Shown here one piece after another: positions 2,923 through 20,659 of a stretch of 64,000 nucleotides of DNA. The stretch is from a virus. Position 1 is the first letter of the stretch, and every line of letters begins with the position of its first letter. The stretch is taken from IMG/VR virus record IMGVR_UViG_3300045919_000631, positions 1 through 64,000 of that record, one strand, 5' to 3'. A model generated the notes under the pieces. That model saw only the letters and a list, made by a program, of their open reading frames with translations, did no database searches and was not told where the DNA came from. The position numbers and the translations under genes were made by a program.

Positions 2923-2958
2923 TGTTTTGTTTTTATTTGTTTATGTTTACTGACAAAA

Positions 2959-3210
2959 TTAGAATTCAACCGGCTCTTTAACTATGACCCGGATATCTTT
3001 TCTCTTCAACCGATTAATAATTTCATTTGCATCCATTTGTGCGGCTTTAAATGCGGGATCTCTCGATGAGAAAGCAAATTGCCGACAATCATACATGTTT
3101 AAATTACCGATTCTATGTTTTATAAAAAGAAACCTAATTCGATGAACTTGCCACCATTTTTCTCCGAGACCATTTTCAAAATACGTAAGGGTGTATTTAA
3201 GTTTTTTCAT
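2959..3210 (-). CDS. hypothetical protein
   Basis: 83-aa ORF coupled to neighbours. Confidence 0.55.
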   Translation of the reverse strand: MKKLKYTLTYFENGLGEKWWQVHRIRFLFIKHRIGNLNMYDCRQFAFSSRDPAFKAAQMDANEIINRLKRKDIRVIVKEPVEF

Positions 3211-3452
3211 GGTTTGATATCTTTAACAGCTTCAACCTCTTTCTGAAGAGCCTTTTTCTTTGACTTCACTGCTTTAACCACTGCTTTTTTATTAGTGGCT
3301 AAACGTTCAGCTTCTTCTTGGAGAAAGTCTGTTTGTCTATCATCATTGAGCAATTTGCTCTTAATCCAGTGATCAAGCCAAGCAGATCGGAAGATCCAGT
3401 AGCAAAGAGCTAGAAGACTGATTATTGCAAGAAATCGTTCGAAGAGAATCAT
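3207..3452 (-). CDS. small membrane-anchored coiled-coil protein
   Basis: N-terminal hydrophobic helix, Lys-rich tail, upstream of SPFH gene. Confidence 0.6.
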   Translation of the reverse strand: MILFERFLAIISLLALCYWIFRSAWLDHWIKSKLLNDDRQTDFLQEEAERLATNKKAVVKAVKSKKKALQKEVEAVKDIKP

Positions 3453-3460
3453 ACCTTATT

Positions 3461-4015
3461 TTATGACATTTCCTGTATAACTTTTTTCATTGCTGATTTA
3501 ATCTCTCGGAGATCTTTAGCAAGGTCTTTCTTTGTGTATGTGTCAAAACCTTTTTGCATTGCTGATGCAGCAATATCAAGTCCAACGTCTTCGAAGCGTT
3601 TAAGCTTCTCGAGCCAATAATCGTTTTGAAAAGCTCGCAGATCAGCCCGGATTTGATCTGGAGTCAAGGCCTCTCCGTCTCTGTTCAGAAAATATTCTGC
3701 GTCGCGACCAAGACCAAGCTCAAGCTCGGCATCGATATAATATGCACGCATACGCGGCGACAAATCAACGAAATCTTCATCAATGAGAGTTGAAAGATTA
3801 TAGCCTGATTTCTTTTTAGGATAATCATGCACAGTACCTTTGATGAAGCGAAATTGGCCATCTTCATTTACGCCAGTTTCAAGGTGACCCCAAAACTTCC
3901 AATGCTCATGCGGGGTACTATTTTCCCAGGCTCCATCAGAGAGTTGCCCAGAAATTTCGTGCTCCCAAATTGCGTGCAAGCCTTTACTAGGAAATAACCA
4001 CGTATGTTTGTTCAT
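3461..4015 (-). CDS. hypothetical protein
   Basis: 184-aa ORF behind GGAAA-N5-TAAAAT promoter variant (4024-4039). Confidence 0.7.
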   Translation of the reverse strand: MNKHTWLFPSKGLHAIWEHEISGQLSDGAWENSTPHEHWKFWGHLETGVNEDGQFRFIKGTVHDYPKKKSGYNLSTLIDEDFVDLSPRMRAYYIDAELELGLGRDAEYFLNRDGEALTPDQIRADLRAFQNDYWLEKLKRFEDVGLDIAASAMQKGFDTYTKKDLAKDLREIKSAMKKVIQEMS

Positions 4016-4043
4016 TCGTGGTTATTTTACTGATTTTCCCTAT

Positions 4044-4670
4044 TTACCAACCTTCTTCAATCACTGGCATATACACATTAGCATTATATCGGATTTCGTT
4101 TTGTGCTTCGAGTTTACTTTCTCGAGTAGCTCGAATAAAAAATCGAAAGCCTTTATGCGTAGTTGGCATTCCTCTATGAAAAGTGAGCCAATCAAAGAAT
4201 ATAGGTTTCGCTTCAGGCGCAATCATGCGATGAAAAACTTTTTCTTCGCATAATTTTTCCACTTCAGTGTCCCATTTCTTATAGATTTTCTCACCAACTG
4301 GAGGTATCTCCATCTCTGCTTCGCCTATTGCAAATTGCGTCAAAGAGCAATTACCCCACAGACACATGCAGTGCTGTGACCTATACTCTGGTGTCTCATA
4401 ATTTGGCTGTTTATCCTCGCGTGTGCGAGGCACGTCATCGTGATGCCAACCAGGAATACAAGGCCACATTCCAGGCATAAGCATATGAACACGCGAATCA
4501 ACAAGAATATCGTTCCAAGGAAGATAGTCTAGAAATCGTTTTGTGAGAACGCCACCGTTGGCTAAAGCAAATTCTCGAGTGGCACGATGGAGCATTGGCT
4601 CCGTTTTGATAGTGTGTTCATCAGCTTTTTCTAGCTGAGGCCCAAACGCTAAATAGCTTGTAATATTCAT
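4044..4670 (-). CDS. putative 2OG-Fe(II) dioxygenase-like protein
   Basis: PGWHHDDVPR (HxD) and distal FHRG, RFFIRA motifs. Confidence 0.6.
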   Translation of the reverse strand: MNITSYLAFGPQLEKADEHTIKTEPMLHRATREFALANGGVLTKRFLDYLPWNDILVDSRVHMLMPGMWPCIPGWHHDDVPRTREDKQPNYETPEYRSQHCMCLWGNCSLTQFAIGEAEMEIPPVGEKIYKKWDTEVEKLCEEKVFHRMIAPEAKPIFFDWLTFHRGMPTTHKGFRFFIRATRESKLEAQNEIRYNANVYMPVIEEGW

Positions 4671-4673
4671 TAT

Positions 4674-4702
4674 AAAAAAGCCGGTGGTATTAGCACCGGC
4701 TT
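4674..4702 (-). terminator. intrinsic terminator after NAD operon
   Basis: aagccggtg/caccggctt stem with U-run. Confidence 0.8.
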
Positions 4703-4712
4703 GGTTGATTTA

Positions 4713-6230
4713 TTAAGCTAACGCTTTTTCTACATTTGCCTGGACTCGAGCTCGAATTTCTGCGAGACTCTGATCAACAAGCAGCTTACCATCTCTGAAT
4801 ACTTCCTTGAGCTGATTAAACTCGCTATTAACGAGCTCTCTCGGCTGGCGATCAAGTGCGATATAATCACCGTTACCATCTTTAACAACGAGAATAAATC
4901 CTCGTGCCGATTTCTTTAAGCCCGAATCTGTCTTCGGATCTTTGAAGATTTCTCTGGTTTCTCCATTGACAATACCAGCTGTTGCCTTCATGGCAAAGCC
5001 GAGTGTGTCGCGTGTTGTATAGGTGTAAGTGTAAGAACCAACACCGAGAACAACATTTGTCGAGGCGAAGCCTTTATCTTTCAGGCCAGACATGATTTGT
5101 TCACACCGCTCAAGCGTGATACTATCACCGTAAATGAGACCGATATGACTATCAAGGACTCTAAATCCTTTATCGGTTACGGTCCCGCCAAAGATATCCC
5201 AGAGACACTGAATAGCGCCTTTGAACTCAGGACTATCACGACGAGCTTGAGGATCGCCAACAATAATCTTTACAGGGTCACCAGAATCTGGACGAATGAC
5301 AACTCTATCGATTGGGAATCCTCCCTTTCGTGCAAGGATATCTTCTTTGAGCTTTGGCAAGAACTTTGTGATAACCTGCCAGAAATCAAAAGAATCCGAT
5401 ACGATAGAAACGATACCCTTTGGATATACTTCTGTGATGAGTCTCTTGAAGGTATCAAACTCACCGTCTTTAGTGCCCATGCACATAACGCTGTGTTCAG
5501 TAGCTGGAACCGATGTTCCAATAAGCTCTTTGTCAGCATTGGCATTGTAATACTCTTCAGCGAAGTCGATTGCAGGCACTGTATCAGTACCGACAAACGA
5601 AGTCAAGTGACCGAGGCCACTCGAAGCACCATCAAAGGCACCGTTCATTCCGCGGAAGCTAAAATCGTGCGCTTGGAAAGGCACGAAGTTTACATCACCA
5701 CCGGTTTCTTTTGCATAGCGTGTGAGCAGCTGCTTATACTTATATGCAGTTGTCGCACTTGTGCAAGTCTTCCAGATGGAGTTACTGATATTGGTTTCCA
5801 AATAGTTTGTCAACCAAAAGAACTCAGGCTTTGTGTTCTCAATTGTAAAGAGAGGAACACGTGCATTTACTGCAGAGCCCTCAGGGAGAGCTCGAACCGA
5901 TAGCGGCAAATACCCCAGATCGTGTAGCGCTTCGATGTGGTCAACTGGAACTGCTCCCACACCTAAAGATGTATCCATTCGTCGTTTATAAGCACCAACG
6001 ACTTGCGCCTTTGGTAGCTTGAAAAAGCCTTCGTCAAAATTCTTGACAAGGTCTTTGATGTATGCCTGAAGACCAACGGAGACGATTTTTTCGTCAACAC
6101 CCGTAGCTTTCGCAGCGTGCTTTACAGAACGCGGCGTGAAGTTCGAGTAAACAAGCTCAGTCCCTTGTGGATACTGTCGCCTGTGATCGGTCTTATAGAA
6201 GTCCAACTGTGTTAGTGGATTTATTTTCAT
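4713..6230 (-). CDS. nadV: nicotinamide phosphoribosyltransferase family (NAMPT; likely NARP1 Namat)
   Basis: DFYKTDH, HDFSFRG, GTDT, VPATEHSVM, SIVSDS, VIRPDSGDP, GLIYGDSIT, TRDTLGFAMKAT, KDPKTDSGLKKSARG. Confidence 0.95.
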   Translation of the reverse strand: MKINPLTQLDFYKTDHRRQYPQGTELVYSNFTPRSVKHAAKATGVDEKIVSVGLQAYIKDLVKNFDEGFFKLPKAQVVGAYKRRMDTSLGVGAVPVDHIEALHDLGYLPLSVRALPEGSAVNARVPLFTIENTKPEFFWLTNYLETNISNSIWKTCTSATTAYKYKQLLTRYAKETGGDVNFVPFQAHDFSFRGMNGAFDGASSGLGHLTSFVGTDTVPAIDFAEEYYNANADKELIGTSVPATEHSVMCMGTKDGEFDTFKRLITEVYPKGIVSIVSDSFDFWQVITKFLPKLKEDILARKGGFPIDRVVIRPDSGDPVKIIVGDPQARRDSPEFKGAIQCLWDIFGGTVTDKGFRVLDSHIGLIYGDSITLERCEQIMSGLKDKGFASTNVVLGVGSYTYTYTTRDTLGFAMKATAGIVNGETREIFKDPKTDSGLKKSARGFILVVKDGNGDYIALDRQPRELVNSEFNQLKEVFRDGKLLVDQSLAEIRARVQANVEKALA

Positions 6231-6694
6231 GTTATTAGTTTTCTTACTTGTATCAGAGCCTGCCCCAGAAGGTTTTGTCCTTTCCAGTTAGCGGGATCTA
6301 AGATTTTGTCGTCATTTGCTCCGAGGCCGACGCCCCAGATATTATCAACTGGCGATGCTTCAACTAGGATTCTATCTCCAGTATCTCGTAGATTTTGCCC
6401 GAGCTCACTGTTTTGCTGAAACTTGAGTAGATTGACATATGTCATCAACCCAAATTTGACGCATTCCCAAGCCTTTGCGTCGAATCCTTTGACTAGCCTA
6501 CCGAGCTTTTTTGCTTCAGCAGGGTTTGTCTCCTTAAAAATTTTGTCTTTGATTTCTTCATCACCGAAGAAGTCAGCTTTATACCACATGAACGCTTGTT
6601 CGCTATTAGCGAAAACTCCCGTAGGGGCTGGATACCAATTACTGTAGATATCGGCTGTGCCCCAGAAATAAATTGCTTTGTCTGTAATTCTCAT
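6227..6694 (-). CDS. NADAR (YbiA-like) family protein
   Basis: SNWY, SEQAFMWYKA, AKKLGR, KFQQN, LVEASPVDNIWGVG, GQNLLG. Confidence 0.92.
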   Translation of the reverse strand: MRITDKAIYFWGTADIYSNWYPAPTGVFANSEQAFMWYKADFFGDEEIKDKIFKETNPAEAKKLGRLVKGFDAKAWECVKFGLMTYVNLLKFQQNSELGQNLRDTGDRILVEASPVDNIWGVGLGANDDKILDPANWKGQNLLGQALIQVRKLIT

Positions 6695-6697
6695 AAA

Positions 6698-7165
6698 TTA
6701 TTTTACTTCGCTAATCAAACGTTCTATCCATTTATTATAATCATCGTATAGTGGAATTCTATACTTTTCAGCGATAATCTCAACATTTCCTTTTCGCCAG
6801 AACCCTTCGGGGCAGCAGATTATAAGTTTGTCTGATTTTGCGTTTAATCCAAGTTCAAGTAAGCTAATTGGTGACTTTGTATTTGGAGCCAGATACATTG
6901 CGATAATATCGGCATCGGATAACCCTCGAAGCTCCCATGTTACTTGCTCTTTAAATACTGGATTTGTGATGCTTTGTACATAATCTACATCAAACTTTTT
7001 ACGCCGCGGATTTAAGATTGTGCAGTTATAAGGACTGAGCCAATTTGTTACCTCTGTCTGCCAATCCACTGCCTTATCCATATCAATGGATCCGGCTAGA
7101 AAGATTACAGGATTTTTTACTGGGATATCATACGGTTCTGGTGCAATGAAAACTTTAGCGCTCAT
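6698..7165 (-). CDS. nucleoside 2-deoxyribosyltransferase-like protein
   Basis: IFLAGSI..WQ, ILNPRR, QVTWEL, SPISLLELG, GFWRKGNV. Confidence 0.88.
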   Translation of the reverse strand: MSAKVFIAPEPYDIPVKNPVIFLAGSIDMDKAVDWQTEVTNWLSPYNCTILNPRRKKFDVDYVQSITNPVFKEQVTWELRGLSDADIIAMYLAPNTKSPISLLELGLNAKSDKLIICCPEGFWRKGNVEIIAEKYRIPLYDDYNKWIERLISEVK

Positions 7166-13352: not shown

Positions 13353-13438
13353 TGGTACGCAAGGAGAGATTCGAACTCTCAAGGACATTTGATCCTAAGT
13401 CAAATGGTTCTACCAGTTTCCCTTTCGTCCACTTGCGC
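13353..13438 (-). tRNA. tRNA-Leu(TAG), enlarged D-arm
   Basis: tttga-ctTAGga-tcaaa, T-arm gagag-ttcgaat-ctctc, CCA. Confidence 0.85.
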
Positions 13439-14059
13439 AAGTAAAAGTTTATCTATTCGTTTGTAATAACTGCCATAATTGCTTGGTATTTTTAATTCTC
13501 TTAAAGTGTCTTGCATATTAAAGTTGTTTTTCTTGTACGTGTGGATTAGATCTTCATCGGATACTCGAAGTTTACAATTTTTTTGCTTTTTGCGGCGGTA
13601 TGTTGGTGTTTGAGCATGGCAATTCGGGCATAATCGTCTCAAGTTTTTAATTCTGTTGTCAGATCTAATTCCATTTATATGGTCAGTTTCCAGCGGAATT
13701 GGAAAATCGTTCCAAGCTGATAACCCGCAACCACCGCACTGATCAGGCCAGTGAAGCACTTCTGTTAAATGACGCTTAATAACACTGCCACCAATATTAG
13801 AATTTGCTGTGAATACGGTTGGATCAGCATATTGTGAGTATTTACCGGGCTTGATTAAGGCTGTTACTCCTTTATGCTGTGGATTGCCAGCATAATTAAT
13901 GCCAAGCTCAGCATTATATTTCATCCATGTTCCATGTGATATGCCTAGCTTTCTTTTAATTTCAAAATTAGAGATTGTATTGTTTGACTCTTCAATCCAT
14001 CTAATAATTTCAGCTTTTCTGGCGGATATCTTTAATCTTTTTCCTTCTCTGGTAGTCAT
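13400..14059 (-). CDS. HNH homing endonuclease
   Basis: CGGCG..LETDHINGIRSDNRIKNLRRLCPNCH; perfect TATAAATA at 14068-14075. Confidence 0.9.
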   Translation of the reverse strand: MTTREGKRLKISARKAEIIRWIEESNNTISNFEIKRKLGISHGTWMKYNAELGINYAGNPQHKGVTALIKPGKYSQYADPTVFTANSNIGGSVIKRHLTEVLHWPDQCGGCGLSAWNDFPIPLETDHINGIRSDNRIKNLRRLCPNCHAQTPTYRRKKQKNCKLRVSDEDLIHTYKKNNFNMQDTLRELKIPSNYGSYYKRIDKLLLAQVDERETGRTI

Positions 14060-18114: not shown

Positions 18115-18266
18115 GTAATTATTTATTTCTTCTTAAAGCGCTTCCAGAACTTTGATTTCTCGATTAATAGCGCAATGCCATCAACAACAAGCTCCCAAAG
18201 AACAGCGCCGCCAAATTTGACGAATAGGGTAATGAGTAGGGTCCACATCCATATATTTAATAAAAT

Positions 18267-18341
18267 TGGTGCAGCGCCAGGGTATCGAACCCTGTCCTCA
18301 AGTTTGGAAAACTCACATGCGTCCATGAACACCTGCGCTGC
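18267..18341 (-). tRNA. tRNA-Gly(TCC)
   Basis: tgagt-ttTCCaa-acttg. Confidence 0.9.
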
Positions 18342-18483
18342 GAAATTTCTTGATGGCAACTAATACAATACACAACCCAGCAAACACTAACCCATACGTG
18401 GACGGCTCTGGCACAACTGGGTGATGTTTTGCATTCCAGTCAGTCATGGCGCTATCTAATGTTTGTGTTGTGGTTGCTGGCAT
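18313..18483 (-). CDS. stand-alone PEP-CTERM microprotein (56 aa, below ORF-track cutoff)
   Basis: MPATTTQTLDSAMTDWNAKHHPV-VPEPSTYGLVFAGLCIVLVAI-KKFRSAGVHGRM: VPEP motif, TM helix, basic tail. Confidence 0.85.
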   Translation of the reverse strand: MPATTTQTLDSAMTDWNAKHHPVVPEPSTYGLVFAGLCIVLVAIKKFRSAGVHGRM

Positions 18484-18487
18484 AAAG

Positions 18488-18563
18488 TGGTGGTAGTAGA
18501 GGAAATCGAATCCCCAACATTCCGCTAATCGGGCGGACGCTCTACCAATTGAGCTATACTACC
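18488..18563 (-). tRNA. tRNA-Ile(GAT)
   Basis: tccgc-ccGATta-gcgga. Confidence 0.9.
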
Positions 18564-19528: not shown

Positions 19529-20158
19529 ATGACTACAGAATTTCTACCAGAGTGTATCTCTGCTTTTAAAGCTTCACGAAAATGTGGAATTTATAAATTA
19601 ATAAGTCCTAACGAATATTACTATATTGGATCGTCTAATAATATTAGGCTACGGTGTTTAAATCACCTGCATAGGCTTAAAAATAATACCCACCCTAACC
19701 CACGCGTACAAAATAAATTTAATGCACATCCAAGTGATTGGAAGGTTTTAATTTTGGAGGAATGTGTTGAAGACTGTATTCTTACAATTGAACAAAAATA
19801 TTTAGATAAAAATTATGGGTTAGAACTTTGTATGAATAATAATCCAATTGCTGGCAAACCTCCGACCAATACAACAGGTATCGGACGCTTTCTAGGCGGT
19901 AAACACGCTCCAGAAGCTAGAGCTAAAATATCAGCAGCAAATATAGCTCGATCAACACCAGAATATAGAAAACGTATGTCTGATATCACAAAATTAAATG
20001 GTAATAAACCACCCAGCCACCCGATTGGGTATATAGTACCTTTAAGTGTGCGCGATAAAATCAGTAATACCCTAAAAGGTCATACAGTTTCTATAGAAAC
20101 GAGAACAAAAATAAGTAATACTTTGAGAAAAAGAAAAGACTTTAAACTACTCATTTAA
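19529..20158 (+). CDS. GIY-YIG homing endonuclease with NUMOD3-like repeats
   Basis: GIYKL...YYIGSS...R...H...EQ; KHAPEARAKIS, HTVSIETRTKIS. Confidence 0.9.
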   Translation: MTTEFLPECISAFKASRKCGIYKLISPNEYYYIGSSNNIRLRCLNHLHRLKNNTHPNPRVQNKFNAHPSDWKVLILEECVEDCILTIEQKYLDKNYGLELCMNNNPIAGKPPTNTTGIGRFLGGKHAPEARAKISAANIARSTPEYRKRMSDITKLNGNKPPSHPIGYIVPLSVRDKISNTLKGHTVSIETRTKISNTLRKRKDFKLLI

Positions 20159-20659
20159 AAATTTCTCCATTTTATTTAAAATTTCATGCGCTACATCTTC
20201 GCGTAGTAGCTGATTCATATAGCCCATGAAAGGTCTAACGTTTATAACCTTGAGCGGCCCAATATCAGAAAGAAATGCTTTCTTTGATTCAAGTGGTAAA
20301 TTAAAACCGTTATCAGGCAAATCATCAACGAGAACAGAACGACCAACTGGAAAATTAAGCTTCTCAACGTGACTGTTTTGAGTATCTTCTCGAGCATAGA
20401 TATTACCCCGGTCAAAGCCAAGATCAAAAGTGTCTACCATCATATGCGCATACTCTCTACATGCTGCTGTGAGCATATAAACATCGCTGTATCTCTCTCT
20501 AACAAGCTTTAGAAATTCTTTTGCACCAGGACGCAGAGTCGTATAATACTTTGATCCATCAGGAAATACAATTCGGGTTGCTCCACCTGGCAAATTGCCA
20601 TAAGCATATTGCGAGTGAATGAGCGTTTCATCGAGATCAATAAAAATATATTTGTTCAT
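20147..20659 (-). CDS. HAD-family NIF/FCP1-like phosphatase
   Basis: IDLDETLIHS, LRPGAKEFL, VLVDD. Confidence 0.82.
   Translation of the reverse strand: MNKYIFIDLDETLIHSQYAYGNLPGGATRIVFPDGSKYYTTLRPGAKEFLKLVRERYSDVYMLTAACREYAHMMVDTFDLGFDRGNIYAREDTQNSHVEKLNFPVGRSVLVDDLPDNGFNLPLESKKAFLSDIGPLKVINVRPFMGYMNQLLREDVAHEILNKMEKFLNE

Follow-up and report, generated by a model that had tools for sequence, protein, structure and literature searches.

Within a 64,000 nt stretch of the IMG/VR virus record IMGVR_UViG_3300045919_000631 (positions 1 to 64,000, here called the window), the spacer between two tRNA genes is filled by an open reading frame (ORF) of 56 aa, counted from its first ATG (18313–18483, minus strand) and supported by matches to PF07589 and TIGR02595 and by codon usage. 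This raises the question of whether a phage can encode a bacterial protein-sorting tag with essentially no passenger attached to it, and what such a product would do. The initial annotation had described a VPEPSTYGL motif, a transmembrane (TM) helix and a KKFR cluster, preceded by only 23 residues and with an overlap into tRNA-Gly, and each of these elements is present at this location. The upstream neighbour is tRNA-Ile(GAU) (18488–18563; 63.1 bits with the Rfam tRNA model) and the downstream neighbour is tRNA-Gly(UCC) (18267–18341; 20.4 bits), both detected with ARAGORN, both with an encoded CCA and both on the minus strand like the ORF. The ARAGORN and ORF coordinates place 29 nt of the ORF (18313–18341, minus strand) within tRNA-Gly, with the TGA stop codon (18315–18313) located inside the 5′ part of the tRNA. 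The tag is tripartite, with VPEP at residues 24–27 (18403–18414) and STYG at residues 28–31, together forming the PEP motif and a conserved extension as delineated by family alignments (18391–18414), a TM segment from Y30 to I44 with a G-L-C motif, read from the sequence (18352–18396), and a basic cluster K-K-F-R at residues 45–48, recognised by comparison with relatives (18340–18351), all on the minus strand. Eight residues follow this cluster. The 23 residues N-terminal of VPEP (11 with a start at Met13) are hydrophilic and on direct reading lack a signal-peptide-like stretch.

The tRNA array surrounding the ORF has several features of its own. ARAGORN predicted 26 tRNAs in the window, versus 33 in a first-reader count, and the score of tRNA-Gly(UCC) is below the Rfam gathering score of 29, with a normal T-arm and G-U-rich D and anticodon stems. 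Located in or beside the array are an HNH-like ORF (13400–14059, minus strand; slightly under the Pfam cut-off) and a GIY-YIG endonuclease ORF and a NIF-type phosphatase (19529–20158, plus strand, and 20147–20659, minus strand), and homing endonucleases may explain the mosaic nature of the array.

TIGR02595 and PF07589 represent the PEP-CTERM sorting domain of exosortase substrates, which was reportedly described by Haft et al. in 2006. The ORF scored 23.7 bits against TIGR02595 (curated cut-off 16) and 22.7 bits against PF07589 (curated cut-off 20.7), and the HMM comparison that the initial annotation had suggested thus came out above the cut-off for both models. A six-frame search of the whole 109,280 bp phage record with TIGR02595 gave this ORF as the sole match (24 bits), and the same search exceeded the cut-off in just two of 14 bacterial and archaeal genomes used as controls. 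As the generic model is short and thousands of small frames exist in the window, a score of about 23 bits (E-value of 1e-4 per protein) might be reached by a spurious open frame of a tRNA spacer that merely resembles a PEP-CTERM tag. However, the combined pattern of motif, TM segment and basic cluster, which was drawn up after the ORF had been seen, occurred once in the real genome and in none of 300 second-order Markov shuffles, and the similarity of the ORF to its relatives runs beyond the generic motif. The ORF reached 62.3 bits with a strict model built from 33 family members with the window ORF left out, and 62.6 bits (E 3e-18) with a 91-member model among the 3,010 open frames of the phage, where the next frame scored 8 bits. 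The shuffles and family models together effectively refute the chance reading, the probability of which we consider close to nil.

Other properties of the ORF were examined for agreement with a protein-coding role. Of the six frames, that of the ORF scores best for codon usage, and this score is at the 7.6th percentile of windows from true genes and within the top 1.2% of off-frame windows. Residues K45 and K46 are at positions +20 and +21 from the P of PEP, a spacing shared with 61 microprotein members and 50 host tails. Specific NCBIfam PEP-CTERM families, which included FxDxF (NF038126), NF038129 and MHFG (NF038119), gave at best 20.4, 19.6 and 19 bits with the ORF against cut-offs of 50–100, reflecting the shared tag only. 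No match to the ORF was obtained at E≤10 with TIGR04161 (VPEID-CTERM miniproteins) or any other NCBIfam miniprotein model, and the PHROGs collection had no family at E<0.02 for the ORF or eight of its relatives. A structured RNA in the spacer was also considered and rejected, with a fold z-score of 0.31 and no Rfam match in the spacer.

Searches of large protein collections showed that the ORF has many small relatives. A phmmer search of 1.84 billion cluster representatives gave 14 matches at E≤1e-3, of which 11 were 48–83 aa in length and had the extended motif, and a profile search of 5.8 billion proteins gave 112 small proteins (43–98 aa, up to 85 bits), all unnamed or annotated as 'hypothetical'. 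The window ORF served as the query with which family members were initially detected; word-indexed protein searches with the ORF alone, at near and longer lengths, gave no match, and its own copy was absent from the protein collections searched. The broad 91-member model did not separate the microproteins from host tails, and strict models were therefore rebuilt. The family signature consists of D-x-W-x-x-Y (in its fuller form D-[PA]-W-x-x-Y-[ED]), a K/H/G-rich linker such as KGKGKG, HGHGH or KHH which ends in His-Pro, the sequence VPEP[SA]TYG in the context [VI]-VPEP-[SA]-TYG, a TM helix often containing G-L-C, and a tail of basic residues. The PEP motif provides the most conserved columns, with P25, E26, T29 and Y30 invariant and P27 and G31 nearly so, and H21 and P22 are invariant or nearly so in alignments A1 and A2. 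The window ORF fits this scheme with T-D-W at residues 14–16, K-H-H-P at residues 19–22 and a length of 44 or 56 aa, and its juxtamembrane segment D15-W16 ... K19-H20-H21-P22 (18418–18441, minus strand) is family-specific, as defined by the alignments and the consensus of the strict microprotein model. The TIGR02595 cut-off was passed by 11 of the 12 aligned members, while no specific NCBIfam PEP-CTERM family and no PHROG accommodated any of them. A signal peptide is present in 11 of 61 members, with the other 50 lacking one like the window ORF, and 15 of these 50 start at most six residues from the aromatic motif.

Judged from these alignments and models, the ORF almost certainly belongs to a family of phage-borne microproteins of about 44–75 aa that span the membrane once. 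The family is uncatalogued, and has been overlooked by gene callers and PHROGs. The proposal in the initial annotation of a genuine phage-encoded PEP-CTERM microprotein devoid of cargo is supported, and our literature search found no paper describing such a phage-encoded protein.

Pattern scans located further members on six more IMG/VR viral contigs (L004, L005, L006, which equals L077, L007, L079 and L080), and a metagenome scan added members on the 181 kb contig L096 and on three short contigs. The first metagenome pattern scan had given no matches, while the second gave 120 stretches, 80 loci of which were read, with four true members. Phage-type genes on the carrier contigs include a terminase (L079), a tail fibre (L080), and an RtcB ligase and tRNA nucleotidyltransferase (L096). 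The carrier phages are diverse, with GC contents of 33–58%, and the window phage has just nine proteins in common with the 130 kb G007 phage, at 27–38% identity. Searches of 50,697 GenBank phage records detected no family member by tblastn, and no DNA relatives of the region beyond tRNA matches. Most of the loci read in the second metagenome scan, on dozens of gut-metagenome contigs in the L088–L167 series, matched the degenerate DNA pattern for H-P-x-x-P-E-P-x-T-Y-G and were rejected as relatives, as this match represents a stop-bounded 49-codon off-frame coincidence in a conserved gut-bacterial gene.

In the contexts read, the micro-ORF is located within packed same-strand operons and mostly overlaps its neighbour by 1–17 nt, chiefly by 4 nt. 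Unlike most other members examined, the window ORF has neither an overlapping-neighbour operon context nor a stop codon outside a tRNA. Comparison of L004:4901–5090 and L005:4901–5090 showed that the micro-ORF and approximately 40 nt upstream are 90–96% identical at the nucleotide level, and the flanks are unalignable (30–50%). Because these two contigs keep the micro-ORF while their flanks cannot be aligned, the pattern suggests that the micro-ORF behaves as a mobile cassette that is exchanged between phages. Contig L096 (Ga0078972_1000388) has the microprotein gene amid a phage tRNA-repair module (2936–6723), where it is flanked by an RtcB tRNA ligase and, on the opposite side, by a phrog_388 nucleotidyltransferase and a tRNA nucleotidyltransferase. 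A link of the family to tRNA or tRNA-repair genes, based on the window, on L096 and on a tRNA-Met located 0.9–1.9 kb upstream in L004 and L005, was dropped, as it is inconsistent across members.

The initial annotation had left room for the ORF being unconserved, or simply the truncated tail of a longer host-derived gene. We found the family to be maintained by purifying selection, with dN/dS values of 0.064/0.555 (~0.12) for L004/L005 and 0.027/0.096 for L117/L165. The family is derived from the tails of long host proteins, yet constitutes a phage gene family that stands alone, and not a stray truncated tail.

The origin of the tag was sought in bacterial genomes. VPEPSTYG tails in GTDB genomes are mostly from Opitutaceae and other Verrucomicrobiota and secondly from Burkholderiales, in agreement with the distribution over Verrucomicrobiota and some Betaproteobacteria given in the initial annotation, and nearly all of them end proteins of 170–2,000 aa. 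The family profile gave seven matches at E≤1e-9 in 301 genomes of the class Verrucomicrobiae, all at the ends of frames of 378–2,663 aa and most spanning nearly the whole profile, and one match, again in a long frame, in 401 genomes across the Verrucomicrobiota phylum; there was no match in 301 Burkholderiales genomes. The small form was absent from the 301 and 401 Verrucomicrobiota genomes, the 301 Burkholderiales genomes and four exhaustively searched genomes. The matching host tails read ...N-Q-I-x-F-x-G-F...D-T-x-W-x-S-Y-D-x-Q-I-x-P-V-PEPSTYG-A-I-F..., and the proteins carrying them contain PATR repeats (PF12951), which occur in autotransporter-like adhesins. Following PEP, the sequence [LA]-[IV]-F-x-G-L-(C) is common to the microprotein family and the Verrucomicrobial tails, while Burkholderiales tails have M-[ML]-L-A-G-L-G-L-V-G, and the window ORF, with L-V-F-A-G-L-C, is of the Verrucomicrobial type. 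With a model of the long host tails the ORF scored 44.6 bits, which is 17.7 bits below its score with the microprotein model. By sequence comparison, the family is a free-standing copy of the C-terminal ~45 residues of giant Verrucomicrobial PEP-CTERM proteins with PATR repeats, from which it differs by its basic linker ending in His-Pro.

This extended similarity supports the use of the tag as a host clue, as the initial annotation had proposed, with Verrucomicrobiota favoured over the Betaproteobacteria that were its second candidate. Three Opitutaceae genomes were found to contain 3–6 exosortase genes each, and no exosortase gene (EpsH/Xrt, PF09721) was detected in the ~52% complete record of the window phage (G000) or in G007. 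The GC content provides an objection, being 37% in the phage and 61–69% in the Verrucomicrobiota with the best-matching tails, so that the host is assigned only indirectly. Near-complete tRNA sets in phages are commonly viewed as compensation for a GC gap between phage and host, and such a gap may be what the large tRNA set of this phage compensates for.

The phage itself is a distant T4-like myovirus, with a gp6-type baseplate wedge protein ~27% identical to those of cyanomyoviruses, and its record has a GC content of 36.8%. It also encodes a full-length nicotinamide phosphoribosyltransferase (4713–6230, minus strand; phrog_448, 665 bits), an auxiliary gene often present in large phages. Shine-Dalgarno sites are absent in 78 of the 96 long ORFs, and an A/T-rich tract is found at positions −13 to −4, which is often TAAATAAT-like and in that form resembles T4-type late promoters. 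Shine-Dalgarno sites are likewise lacking at the micro-ORFs of L004–L007. Using a start-context matrix built from the phage's own genes, the first ATG of the window ORF (18483), located 4 nt past the CCA of tRNA-Ile, scored −6.05, which is below every long-ORF start of the phage. The ATG of Met13 (18447) scored +1.71, at the 58th percentile of long-ORF starts, and gives a protein starting with M-T-D-W, as in many family members, leaving 40 nt after tRNA-Ile. Because the Met13 context is typical, that of the first ATG is the worst and the M-T-D-W start is family-like, the product is likely to be a 44 aa protein from Met13 (18313–18447, minus strand).

Expression of the window copy is uncertain, as its stop codon lies inside tRNA-Gly, and RNase P cleavage of the precursor would consequently leave a message without a stop codon. 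The last nine codons (S-A-G-V-H-G-R-M and the stop) are tRNA-Gly sequence and not family sequence, which ends at K-K-F-R, precisely where tRNA-Gly starts. The family could thus be real and the window copy a stranded relic that is not expressed, derived from a cassette which inserted among the tRNA genes and whose 3′ end, including its own stop codon, was replaced by tRNA-Gly, with the spacer RNA removed during tRNA processing. The position of the stop codon and the eight foreign residues at the tail fit such a relic, as does the first ATG, which is so close to the CCA and has the poorest start context in the genome. Both GC and GC3 of the ORF exceed the phage norm (GC3 of 0.43 versus 0.275 ± 0.083 for phage genes, 94th percentile), which may indicate a fairly recent, unsettled acquisition. 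Syntenic relatives were not found: there were no close relatives of the phage in viral contigs when searched with 8-mer peptides, no exact copies of the tRNA-Ile 3′ half in viral contigs, and the two phages related via the neighbouring 111 aa gene have no tRNAs nearby and no PEP-CTERM. All other members examined are in ordinary operons, never between tRNAs. However, the frame of the window copy is intact from the usual family start to the basic cluster and has kept all invariant residues, the start context of Met13 is typical, the codon-usage score is the best among the six frames, and there is no RNA structure to explain the composition of the spacer otherwise. The foreign residues are not exceptional either, since host tails often extend 5–15 residues past the basic pair. 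On balance we consider a relic unlikely, and a functional window copy is predicted with reasonable, though not high, confidence.

If the copy is functional, a sigma-70-like sequence (18644–18617, minus strand) could drive tRNA-Ile, the ORF and tRNA-Gly, although such matches are not enriched here. A second small ORF, located 19 nt past tRNA-Gly (18123–18248, minus strand), encodes 41 aa with a single helix and a basic tail and has a start-context score of 3.8, which is very good for this phage; it may specify a second small membrane protein on the same tRNA-array transcript.

What might the microprotein do? The best explanation overall, for which we see the arguments as about evenly balanced, is that the ORF is a real family member acting as a minimal substrate or competitor of exosortase. 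The 44 aa product starting at Met13 would be translated from the tRNA-array transcript and inserted into the inner membrane with its N-terminus out and its C-terminus in, following the positive-inside rule. This topology is predicted because the N-side has a negative net charge and the C-side one of +4, and the short acidic N-tail would need no signal peptide; acidic N-tails of 12–24 residues can cross the membrane without one, as in the Pf3 coat protein. The signal peptides found in some members fit a periplasmic N-terminus for the family as a whole. The PEP motif would then be presented to the host exosortase, where the minimal substrate would compete with host PEP-CTERM proteins, and the surface or matrix of the infected cell would be altered, for instance causing superinfection exclusion, loss of a receptor or easier release. 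Competition by a minimal substrate is the simplest reading, given that the recognition motif and its spacing are what selection acts on. The phage thus probably supplies a minimal substrate or decoy to the surface-sorting enzyme of its host, and for the family we lean slightly towards a function through exosortase. The sequence would fit either a decoy, a plausible role already put forward in the initial annotation, which jams the enzyme, or a tagged product, in which a short peptide is placed on the envelope.

The second of these forms can be taken further, with the protein being true exosortase cargo, the released N-terminal peptide of ~12–25 residues being attached to the envelope or exopolymer as the active product, and its D-x-W motif and His/Lys linker serving as a surface mark or as a tag that binds metals or changes charge. 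The residues upstream of PEP are themselves conserved (D-x-W-x-x-Y, the K/H/G linker and His-Pro), and 11 of the 61 members have signal peptides like ordinary cargo. However, the upstream motif is also present in the host tail (W-x-S-Y-D), and may thus be a recognition element, and we regard the active-peptide reading as improbable. Alternatively, the product could be a functional small membrane protein that is independent of exosortase, with the PEP-like motif as inherited baggage or a structural turn. Such a protein might exclude superinfecting phages, serve as a modulator of the holin/antiholin type or inhibit some other membrane machinery. Small membrane proteins are numerous in T4-like phages, the 41 aa TM ORF is directly downstream, and the lack of an exosortase in the phage record is in line with such a role. 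Arguing against this, the columns that do not vary within the family (P, E, P, T, Y and G) are those of the exosortase recognition motif, and the basic cluster has retained the 20-residue distance of real substrates, neither of which a generic anchor needs. The family also tracks one host-type tail. A role independent of exosortase is therefore quite improbable in our assessment.

Extending the minimal-substrate reading, phages that infect Verrucomicrobiota, and perhaps those of other bacteria with exosortases, could carry a mobile 'anti-sorting' cassette which mimics the tail of host proteins and occupies or poisons exosortase, such that giant PATR proteins would miss the surface. These adhesin-like proteins may be phage receptors or traps. 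This proposal is speculative, and we consider it rather doubtful in its full form. If true, inhibition or hijacking of a sorting system of the exosortase type by a phage product would be seen here for the first time, and the cassette would offer a natural minimal substrate to learn what exosortases attach their substrates to. A natural 44–75 residue substrate mimic under purifying selection would be a handy probe for the chemistry and the acceptor of exosortases. Phages that alter exosortase-dependent surface proteins would also represent a new kind of host takeover in Verrucomicrobiota, which are abundant but poorly studied, and for which we know of very few phages. The fine sequence of the tag (TYG-[LA]-[IV]-F-x-G-L-C and the W..Y motif) could additionally be used to mark the hosts of uncultured phages.

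Comparison with known systems shows both the relationships and the peculiarities of the window ORF. With PEP-CTERM exosortase substrates it has in common the PEP motif, the TM helix, the basic cluster and the 20-residue spacing, but it lacks a signal peptide, has essentially no passenger, and is located between tRNAs on a lytic-type phage, without an exosortase in the available 52% of the record. As cited in PMC12642866, Zoogloea needs PEP-CTERM proteins to form flocs (Gao et al. 2018). The PF12951-containing Verrucomicrobial proteins have tails that resemble the family in their aromatic motif (W-x-S-Y-D versus D-x-W-x-x-Y), in PEPSTYG-[LA]-[IV]-F-x-G-L-(C) and in the basic pair at +20/+21, which is Arg-Arg in these tails and Lys-Lys in the window ORF. 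These tails have Q-I-x-P before PEP and are found on proteins of 400–5,500 aa, whereas in the free-standing phage proteins this position is taken by the K/H/G linker with its terminal His-Pro. The Pf3 coat protein, with ~44 aa, a short acidic N-tail, one TM segment, a basic C-tail and no signal peptide, is similar to the window product as a topological analogy only, with no sequence relationship, and coat proteins of the Pf3 type insert with the N-terminus out and the C-terminus in. Small PEP-CTERM clusters are also listed in bacteria in the Atlas (score 0.88, a lead only). Bacterial cargo-less miniproteins, such as the VPEID-CTERM targets of exosortase E (TIGR04161/TIGR04162), likewise consist of little beyond the sorting tag, but these are chromosomal and usually have an adjacent exosortase and a signal peptide, whereas the family described here is found on phage contigs.
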